Part shown: in pieces, positions 37,535 through 37,897 of the stretch | How the letters are laid out: the number at the start of each line of letters is the position of its first letter | Position numbering within the stretch: position 1 is the stretch's first letter | Source: a virus | Taxonomy: Duplodnaviria; Caudoviricetes | Reading direction: 5' to 3' (one strand) | Virus record (IMG/VR): IMGVR_UViG_3300021426_000005 | DNA length: 64,000 nucleotides | Program-made: the position numbers and the translations under genes | Notes under the pieces: generated by a model | Database searches by the model: none | What the model saw: only the letters and a program-made list of their open reading frames with translations | Told to the model about the DNA's origin: nothing

Positions 37535-37849
37535 AAATGTGGTACTTGAAGTAAGATTTGAATTCACATCAAGTACCGTTTGGTCGGGTTTACAGGGAGC
37601 GACCCCATATTCCCAATGAGTTGCCTACACAAGAACGTGTAACTTATGTAGGACTTTTATCCCTTTTGCTAGTTTCCGTAGGTAGCTACTTCTACAGGTT
37701 TGCTCATAATCAGGGACGATTTGATGGCTGTTCCGTCTTCATCAATTCTACATCACAAAATTGTAATATCTAAGATACTAGTATTTTACAATGCTGCCAC
37801 ACCGTTTTTGGATAGTTGGTCCGGAGTTTCTTATCTGGGTCATTGCAAA

Positions 37850-37883
37850 ATTTCAATCCACGCTCCCCGTGAGAGGGGGCGAC
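37850..37883 (-). CRISPR. solitary type I-C-like CRISPR repeat (no array, no cas genes in window)
   Basis: GTCGCCCCCTCTCACGGGGAGCGTGGATTGAAAT matches the I-C repeat layout GTCGC-hairpin-GCGTGGATTGAAAT. Confidence 0.8.
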
Positions 37884-37897
37884 ACCATAATCTCCGG

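Follow-up and report, generated by a model that had tools for sequence, protein, structure and literature searches.

A CCA-ended module in the tRNA operon of a rumen phage

The DNA analyzed here is a 64,000-nt stretch (hereafter, the window) of IMG/VR record IMGVR_UViG_3300021426_000005; it is part of a ~145-kb contig of a large cattle-rumen phage, and 100% identical copies of it occur in two other assemblies. ARAGORN calls nine transfer RNA (tRNA) genes in the window, all on the minus strand, to which all coordinates of the module described below also refer. One of them, tRNA-Leu(CAA) (37898..37983, minus strand; Rfam tRNA score, 54.4 bits), encodes its own CCA, and its last base abuts an 81-nt element (37817..37897, minus strand), the subject of this report, which we call the module. 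It runs from a 5′ CCGGAG to a 3′ ACCA and encloses a single 34-nt clustered regularly interspaced short palindromic repeat (CRISPR) of type I-C. A first-pass annotation, made from the sequence alone, had described a solitary type I-C repeat in CRISPR RNA (crRNA) sense, lying between CCGGAG and CTCCGG-ACCA after tRNA-Leu(CAA), and the sequence is as claimed. Some of the relatives (relative loci are labeled L234–L251) were reached via homologues of the phage's SbcC-like protein, and in the light of all of them the module appears as the short form of a conserved small-RNA scaffold.

The module begins at the base after the CCA of tRNA-Leu(CAA) and reads, in order, CCGGAG, 8 nt, the 34-nt repeat, 23 nt, CTCCGG, A, and CCA. 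The 5′ strand of stem 1, CCGGAG (37892..37897), is invariant in 8 of 8 distinct family members, and that of stem 2, AUU-A-UGG with a bulged A (37885..37891), corresponds in the long form of the scaffold to AUC(G/U)GG, which pairs with CC(C/A)GAU. The repeat itself (37850..37883) comprises a hairpin (37881..37861) and an 11-nt 5′ handle (37860..37850), and the cut-site rule of PMC8524198 places the predicted Cas5c cut between 37861 and 37860. Beyond the handle lies a 33-nt “spacer” (37817..37849) that doubles as the scaffold's 3′ strand. This segment, found once in the window, consists of a 10-nt linker, the 3′ strand of stem 2 (CCAGAU, 37838..37833), AAGAAA, CUCCGG (37826..37821), and ACCA (37820..37817). 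The first-pass annotation had reckoned that cleavage by Cas5c (there called Cas5d) together with tRNA-type 3′ processing would give the handle plus 33 nt; this arithmetic, with the 33 nt ending at ACCA, is right, and the length falls inside the 33–36 nt that account for 95% of 1180 spacers of the repeat family.

The closing helix of the module is in two parts (6 + 6 bp, 12 bp in all) and is followed by A-CCA, or by G-CCA in L243. A 12-bp helix with an RCCA end is the acceptor/T-arm minihelix type that RNase P and CCA-adding enzymes accept. The module has the ends of a tRNA, namely an acceptor-like helix, a discriminator base, and CCA, with a 5′ end at the first paired base that is exact across loci. 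At E ≤ 1, Rfam assigns the module to neither the tRNA family nor any other and gives no match for the long form; ARAGORN makes no tRNA call on the module, and there is no cloverleaf. A reading of the handle as a T arm (a weak GUGGA/UUUGC hairpin with a 7-nt loop) was dropped as a defining feature because this hairpin is not adjacent to the acceptor helix. The module is its own folding domain within a 363-nt spacer; the whole spacer has a z score of −3.4, and the module folded alone has a z score of −1.37, which is not significant in single-sequence folding. A loose scan of the operon for 6 of 7 pairs followed by N and CCA returned 50 matches against 22 expected. Judged from the window alone, the enclosing stem is not beyond chance.

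Identity of the CRISPR repeat

The enclosed repeat has the GTCGC head, a length within 32–34 nt, and the end GTGGATTGAAA(T/C) of type I-C repeats, the pattern of its family being GTCGC(T/C)CCCC...GCGTGGATTGAAAT. A type I-C repeat forms a 7–8 bp stem with a 2-nt 5′ overhang and an 11-nt 3′ overhang (PMC8524198); here, both overhangs are exact, and the last 14 nt have the I-C layout of stem base plus 11-nt overhang described there. The stem is a perfect 6 bp in L243 and is imperfect in L242 and in the window, where it can be drawn either as 3 bp, a bulged A, and 4 bp or as an 8-bp stem with one C·A mismatch and one U·G pair. The last 19 nt of the repeat are identical to type I-C array repeats in at least 120 genome contigs, which among the matches listed come mostly from metagenome-assembled genomes of Oscillospiraceae, Ruminococcus, and other Clostridia. 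When the 34-mer was searched at ≤3 mismatches in 401 genomes of one family, the nearest equal-length array repeat, in genome G126, differed at 3 positions. Neither IMG/VR nor a set of 185,579 species genomes contains the exact 34-mer. Matching the repeat to arrays, as the first-pass annotation had proposed, thus succeeded for the last 19 nt; an array with the exact 34-mer was not found in these genomes, and the searches named no host. The full repeat is single in the window, with 0 copies expected at ≤3 mismatches in shuffled sequence.

These comparisons indicate a genuine type I-C CRISPR repeat. That the stretch is not CRISPR-derived and owes its likeness to chance is extremely unlikely: the absence of the exact 34-mer from both collections would suit a coincidence, but the identity of 19 of 34 nt to repeats in at least 120 array loci, the correct head, an equal-length array repeat that differs at 3 positions only, and the perfect 6-bp hairpin version at the same place in L243 would not.

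The window contains no array of repeats with 33–36-nt spacers. The only other trace of a repeat is a truncated type I-C head of 13 nt (37591..37603, minus strand), ~250 nt past the full repeat on that strand. Its sequence equals the first 13 nt of a real array repeat variant (one match against 0.005 expected from shuffles), L242 has it too, and it may be the decayed remains of a second capture. In the T-arm that follows the truncated head, 10 of 12 positions, read from the sequence, match the I-C handle region. Solitary repeats of the same family are common in IMG/VR, with a single copy in 28 of 39 contigs. Because none of 32 other solitary I-C repeat loci in IMG/VR adjoins a tRNA, the location within a tRNA operon appears unusual for a type I-C repeat.

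Short and long forms of a conserved scaffold

Near-identical phages (97–100% nucleotide identity) retain the module, and one sub-lineage among them (L234 and L235) carries a G>A change at the stem base beside the cut site. The module is also retained directly after tRNA-Leu(CAA) in two more distant loci, L242 and L243, whose SbcC-like proteins are 70% and 69% identical to that of the window phage. In both, flanks, stem base, handle, and 3′ tail agree with those of the window but for one 5′-flank change each, and the 33 nt are identical in L242 and, except for the discriminator (GCCA), in L243. The upper hairpin differs in each of these three short-form lineages: the window has the bulge or mismatch described above, L242 has another mismatch and a 7-nt loop, and L243 has the perfect 6-bp stem. 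Across the three, the 5-nt head and the 14-nt stem base and handle are intact; insertions and deletions are confined to the upper stem and loop, as are most other changes. For comparison, the operons of the window and L242 are ~94% identical (~6% divergence, counted by hand from the alignment). The first-pass annotation had named, as the finding that would speak against it, a decayed array remnant with unconserved flanks; in the relatives, the flanks are better conserved than the hairpin.

In most relatives, the site is occupied by a long form of 104 nt that has a 60-nt apical hairpin and no repeat. In a relative syntenic with the window (L244/L245; SbcC-like protein, 52% identity), CCGGAG and the whole 3′ part through CTCCGG-ACCA stand at the same position after tRNA-Leu(CAA), and the module has no I-C repeat. 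A pattern built on the conserved 3′ part recovered the long form in one 239.8-kb IMG/VR contig (also a JGI record) and in four JGI/GenBank metagenome contigs, including one of 160 kb; all long forms lie within tRNA arrays. The same module ends are found in 8 distinct sequences from different phages, and the DNA outside CCGGAG and ACCA differs among them. A CCA, the end of the upstream tRNA or tRNA-like RNA, directly precedes the module in 8 of 8, with at least three unrelated upstream and at least three unrelated downstream contexts. Because CCA always stands before it and the outer DNA differs, the module is set off as a discrete unit whose limits are the predicted RNA ends, and we take it to be a discrete small-RNA unit of tRNA arrays in large rumen phages.

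RNAalifold folds the long forms into two 6-bp stems, of which stem 1 is invariant, below a long apical hairpin. Stem 2 contains a covarying pair, G-C in 3 sequences and U-A in 2, and the short forms have the U-A version plus the bulged A. The recurrence of the same ends in 8 sequences, together with the covariation in stem 2, leads us to accept the CCA-ended stem as real. For the earlier pairing scheme, this means that the CCGGAG/CTCCGG stem, invariant in all 8 distinct sequences, is sustained, whereas the inner TTAT/ATAA pairing is given up because the ATCAT of L242 is not compensated; the supported register pairs AU(C/U)-[A]-UGG with CCA-GAU. A stem does enclose the repeat, as had been noticed; it was, however, not built around the repeat but is an older, conserved phage RNA scaffold onto which the repeat was later grafted. 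The distribution of the two forms points the same way. Long forms occur widely and short forms in one tight clade only, which argues that the repeat is the derived state. The presence of the long form at the same site in syntenic L244, together with its occurrence in the 160-kb and 240-kb phage contigs, argues that it is ancestral.

The 5′ strand of the apical hairpin in the long forms (e.g., L246:266-369, minus strand) is formed by a 13-nt stretch that resembles the I-C stem base and handle: aligned with one gap, the two agree at 12 of 14 positions. The likeness may be coincidental, the trace of an older repeat that has decayed, or microhomology that favored the graft.

Several further searches for relatives returned little. 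Among GenBank phages, the module region gave tRNA similarity only and the long form gave no match. IMG/VR relatives reached via neighboring proteins (≤72% amino acid identity) have no tRNAs and no repeat nearby, and a search of IMG/VR with the SbcC-like protein found a single relative, at 34% identity. A pattern for the tRNA-Leu 3′ end had no match in IMG/VR or JGI metagenomes. A relaxed scaffold pattern with a gap of 35–65 nt had no match in IMG/VR; it cannot catch the 77-nt gap of the long form, so this null speaks only to further short forms in IMG/VR.

The graft junction and the candidate target of the 33-mer

In the short form, the repeat takes the place of the 60-nt apical hairpin, and its 3′ end falls where every long form reads TTC. 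TTC is the protospacer-adjacent motif (PAM) of type I-C, and it directly precedes the 33-nt match in every long form. The 33-mer matches this TTC-flanked site at 33 of 33 positions in L246, L248, and L250 and at 32 of 33 in L244, L247, and L251, the sole difference being spacer position 14, which is the covarying base of stem 2. Because the repeat end occupies the position of TTC, a Cas5c cut would leave the 11-nt handle plus 33 nt matching the sibling site, and the carrier's own copy of the 33 nt is preceded by AAT, the repeat end, with no PAM. The 33-mer is thus, by alignment, the scaffold's own 3′ strand, and its apparent target is the same locus of sibling phages.

The proposed search for a protospacer with a TTC PAM was accordingly fruitful at one place, the same locus of sibling phages, and at no other among the sets searched. 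A 35-mer query gave chance-level matches only, in unrelated taxa (phages and plasmids); nothing above chance was found in ~120 array-bearing loci; and there was no match at ≤3 mismatches in the five genomes with the nearest repeats, nor any in 50 genomes of one Ruminococcus-labeled genus. In the reverse direction, the longest match of 1180 array spacers to the window is 17 nt with one mismatch (16 nt exact), and these spacers therefore provide no link to a host. The same nulls bear on the suggestion that the RNA guides Cascade, by partial PAM-proximal pairing, to a host cas or creT promoter and silences it. Viral crRNA-like regulators of this kind (Cracrs), including type I-C examples, have been described (bioRxiv 10.1101/2024.10.29.618823), and the RNA of the module has the handle and spacer-length tail that such a role would call for. 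It has, however, no TTC-flanked seed match above chance in the ~120 array-bearing loci and no full match in the five nearest-repeat genomes, and its spacer is the phage's conserved scaffold strand and not a copy of a host CreA or CreR spacer. We consider this explanation very improbable.

Because the repeat sits at the ancestral PAM/protospacer boundary, its likely source is a host array that targeted the site: we regard recombination with an array carrying a spacer from this locus as the probable origin of the graft. The same origin can account for the allele with no function at all. On that explanation, a host took up a spacer at the TTC-flanked site of a long-form phage, a phage later recombined with this array through the 33-nt identity of spacer and protospacer, the repeat replaced the PAM side and put the site beyond targeting, and the resulting scar of escape has since been without a role and is slowly decaying. 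We regard this as a serious rival, possible though not probable, because recombination with a host array spacer leaves the same junction: it lies exactly at the ancestral PAM/protospacer boundary and in array orientation, and recombination with host arrays is the route by which phage mini-arrays are proposed to gain spacers (PMC7099407). The private hairpin lesion of each lineage, the stem-base change in L234 and L235, and the truncated head of a different repeat variant close by are likewise in keeping with decay, and the conservation of handle and spacer is within what the ~6% background divergence permits. Set against it is the pattern of that decay, in which insertions and deletions all, and changes mostly, fall in the upper stem and loop while the 5-nt head and 14-nt base and handle stay intact in three lineages. 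Furthermore, the allele has lasted for at least 12 years across many samples, and a repeat within an abundant RNA of an I-C host would hardly escape binding by Cas5c. An array with this spacer was not found either: the scan of JGI metagenomes gave phage loci only, and the spacer is absent from the 1180 array spacers and from the genomes searched.

As to persistence, runs that contain parts of the operon come from animal gut and rumen samples of 13 studies, dated 2013–2025, and the repeat-bearing allele was found in 10 assemblies of different samples.

A candidate one-repeat crRNA on a tRNA-like scaffold

We tentatively propose, with somewhat less than even confidence, that tRNA-type processing and a Cas5c cut turn the module into a one-repeat crRNA, which directs host Cascade at sibling phages and competes with host guides. 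In this mechanism, tRNA-processing enzymes would cut the operon transcript to give a stable 81-nt RNA; the cut at the 5′ side of the module would fall to RNase P, as the resemblance of the helix and RCCA to an acceptor/T-arm minihelix suggests. Host Cas5c would then cut at the hairpin base and keep the 11-nt handle, and Cas7 would fill the 33 nt up to the ACCA end, producing a full-size Cascade without a second repeat. Such a complex could not attack the carrier, whose own copy is preceded by the AAT of the repeat end instead of a PAM, and would match the TTC-flanked long-form allele of siblings. Host Cascade-Cas3 would thereby be turned on competitors or superinfecting relatives, and Cas proteins would be drawn away from host crRNAs.

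Cas5c recognizes the cut site and the downstream handle and tolerates changes in the loop (PMC8524198), and the conservation in the three short-form lineages, with a fixed lower stem and handle and a variable upper stem and loop, matches this pattern of recognition. The crRNA in the structure of I-C Cascade lacks a Cas6-bound 3′ stem-loop; its 5′ handle is clamped by Cas5c and Cas7, and its guide is spanned by seven Cas7 subunits (PMC7684278). Together, the tolerance of Cas5c and this structure make a one-repeat crRNA plausible for type I-C. Viral mini-arrays, moreover, usually contain a single spacer, directed at a closely related virus; recombination with host arrays is their presumed source, and they are commoner in temperate viruses (PMC7099407). 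For this last reason, we count the serine integrase of the phage in favor of the proposal.

A number of observations weigh against it. The TTC/33-nt junction is equally explained by origin alone, that is, by recombination at the spacer. The hairpin has a different defect in each lineage, and the G>A change of L234 and L235 lies at a position of the stem base where mutations inhibit BhaCas5c (PMC8524198). The lack of any change in handle and spacer is weak evidence of constraint because the operons of the window and L242 are ~94% identical. The guide region is base-paired within the scaffold, and the truncated head 250 nt downstream indicates that repeat fragments can persist without being Cas5c substrates. 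The long forms have no PAM or seed escape changes. No I-C array with this exact repeat was found in the genome searches, nor did they identify the phage host. We do not count among these observations that no contig covers 37817-37897 in four ruminant metatranscriptome sets, because contigs are uninformative on absence or on RNA ends.

The module may instead be a pure decoy of the RNA anti-CRISPR (Racr) type, an abundant, stable tRNA-like RNA that ties up Cas5c and Cas7 and so weakens I-C immunity, the sibling match being a by-product of the graft site. A type I-C Racr, RacrIC1, has been validated experimentally (PMC10651486). The repeat of the window is solitary and viral, family scans of the larger open reading frames (ORFs) of the window found no cas genes, and the frequency of single-copy repeats of this family in IMG/VR (28 of 39 contigs) fits the same picture, as do the conserved Cas5c determinants. 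The surroundings are also rich in counter-defense functions, with five DNA methyltransferases and a protein 95% identical to one flagged as PF26125. We nevertheless judge a pure decoy unlikely. No decoy requires the exact TTC-site junction or a 33-nt tail; the hairpin is imperfect; a full-length crRNA mimic would lead to normal Cascade, whereas an aberrant sub-complex is what has been described for RacrIF1; and the AcrVA2-like gene lies ~7 kb away, compared with the 1 kb used in PMC10651486, and has no match in our Pfam scan. The first-pass annotation had offered a Cascade decoy or a guide that borrows host Cascade; we keep both and add the escape scar as the main rival. The one-repeat crRNA, the scar, and the decoy differ in function and not in origin, and all could be partly true. 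A further-reaching form of the crRNA proposal, a natural “tRNA-guide RNA (gRNA)” allele that arms host I-C Cascade-Cas3 against PAM-bearing siblings and is at once escape, weapon, and self-favoring allele, seems to us doubtful.

Other RNAs of the operon and the carrier phage

The spacer that contains the module holds a second tRNA-like element, a CCA-ended acceptor/T-arm minihelix (37540..37577, minus strand) 5 nt before tRNA-Leu(TAA), with a fold of −16 kcal/mol (z = −5.4). It consists of an acceptor-like strand, a T-arm with a TTCAAAT loop, a tRNA-Leu-like 3′ strand, A, and CCA, and in L242, an A>G change closes the fifth pair of the T stem; we take it to be a second tRNA-like punctuation element of the same spacer. 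Between the module and this minihelix lie 240 nt that fold into several hairpins and match no Rfam family; an RNA-library contig of 169 nt from another study is 100% identical to 37639-37807 (minus strand), immediately 3′ of the module.

A stem scan identified two further noncanonical RNAs (39098-39206 and 39863-39973, both minus strand) with 7-bp closing stems and T-CCA ends. One of the pair carries, at the T position, a hairpin with a non-T loop; its partner combines a perfect T arm with a branched core. Counting the module, the operon contains a set of CCA-ended RNAs. Four ruminant RNA libraries of three studies yield contigs that map to ~39619-40071 (minus strand), between a tRNA-Leu (39600-39694) and tRNA-Met. 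Two of these contigs are 100% identical to the window, and Rfam finds only a weak fragment of a transfer-messenger RNA end. The region may encode one or more abundant, unassigned RNAs, including the tRNA mimic at 39863-39973. The tRNA-Leu(TAG) call at 39600-39694 (minus strand) is itself unusual at 95 nt, and a second, normal tRNA-Leu(TAG) is present at 38080-38164. tRNA-Pro (37365-37442) diverges far more between close relatives than other operon parts do.

The gene set of the phage includes the serine integrase, the SbcC-like ATPase, UvrD-type and SNF2-type helicases, and a MazF/PemK-like protein. Five DNA methyltransferases of the C5, N6/N4, and D12 classes (26347-38990, minus strand) lie within 13 kb around the tRNA operon, one of them inside it, and constitute a dense anti-restriction block. 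Homologues of the integrase (~60% identity) and of a neighboring methyltransferase (88%) are labeled Ruminococcus and Oscillospiraceae, which is a weak hint of the host. The 361-amino acid (aa) protein at 29863-30948 (minus strand) is 95% identical to a relative's protein with a precomputed match to PF26125 (AcrVA2-like), and syntenic L244 likewise has a PF26125-flagged gene; a Pfam scan of the window protein gave no match, PF26125 included. The SNF2-type helicase (61237-63495, minus strand) has a sub-cut-off Pfam match to an intein splicing domain at residues ~166–220 and may carry an intein or intein remnant. Relatives contain insertions that are absent from the window (L234:4605-5114, L241:6423-7607, and L244:4989-6203); one insertion, of 620 nt with a 169-aa ORF, is inside the tRNA operon near window position 37405, and two are IS605/TnpB-type genes.

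Relation to known systems and significance

The module resembles Racrs in being a single crRNA-sense repeat in a phage, away from arrays and cas genes and in a region rich in counter-defense functions, and the class has a validated type I-C representative (PMC10651486, Camara-Wilpert et al. 2023). As a solitary viral repeat outside CRISPR-cas loci, the window repeat is a candidate member. A Racr is, in addition, an expressed small RNA that inhibits its cognate CRISPR-Cas system; the repeat lies in a tRNA operon, where RNA-library contigs cover neighboring stretches (37639-37807 and 39619-40071). It differs in that the repeat sits inside an older CCA-ended scaffold of a tRNA operon, whereas a Racr is its own small gene or follows an acr gene, and in that it has a spacer-length tail with a PAM-flanked match in siblings; the word “tRNA” does not occur in the text of PMC10651486.

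Virus-borne mini-CRISPR arrays have been described by Medvedeva et al. 2019 (PMC6858448) and Iranzo et al. 2020 (PMC7099407) and, as these two papers cite it, by Faure et al. 2019. Like them, the module sits in a virus with no cas genes among its scanned ORFs, has a single spacer directed at a close relative, would need host Cas proteins, and may have come by recombination with host arrays; its spacer matches a close virus beside the cognate PAM, L244 being syntenic with the window. Mini-arrays, in contrast, have at least two repeats flanking the spacer, and the module has one, its 3′ end being supplied by the tRNA-like ACCA. Its spacer is, moreover, a strand of the carrier's own functional RNA and its target an allelic site, and it has no leader, as would be expected if it is transcribed within the tRNA operon.

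Cracrs are phage RNAs with a repeat-derived handle and a short guide that load host Cas proteins and compete with crRNAs, and type I-C examples are known (bioRxiv 10.1101/2024.10.29.618823). They copy CreA or CreR spacers and aim at cas or toxin promoters, whereas the module matches sibling phages and no promoter target was found for it in the loci and genomes searched.

Guides are freed from a precursor by the cell's tRNA-processing enzymes in synthetic polycistronic tRNA-gRNA arrays, and the same enzymes free small RNAs from the TMERs (tRNA-linked pre-microRNAs) of murine gammaherpesvirus 68. In these engineered and eukaryotic systems, a whole tRNA stands beside the guide; in the module, which belongs to a bacteriophage, an acceptor-like helix and CCA enclose it. 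Solitary repeats and mini-arrays are already known, and what is unusual here is the scaffold and the solution to the 3′ end, together with an ancestral allele that is informative.

If the proposed mechanism is true, it would constitute a new route from one repeat to a Cas-loaded RNA, with a 3′ end made by tRNA-type processing, and the module may offer compact expression of type I-C guides. The long and short forms are a rare before-and-after pair that shows how such elements arise. If the RNA is loaded into Cascade, a single event in these rumen phages would join escape from CRISPR, anti-CRISPR competition, and conflict between phage and phage.

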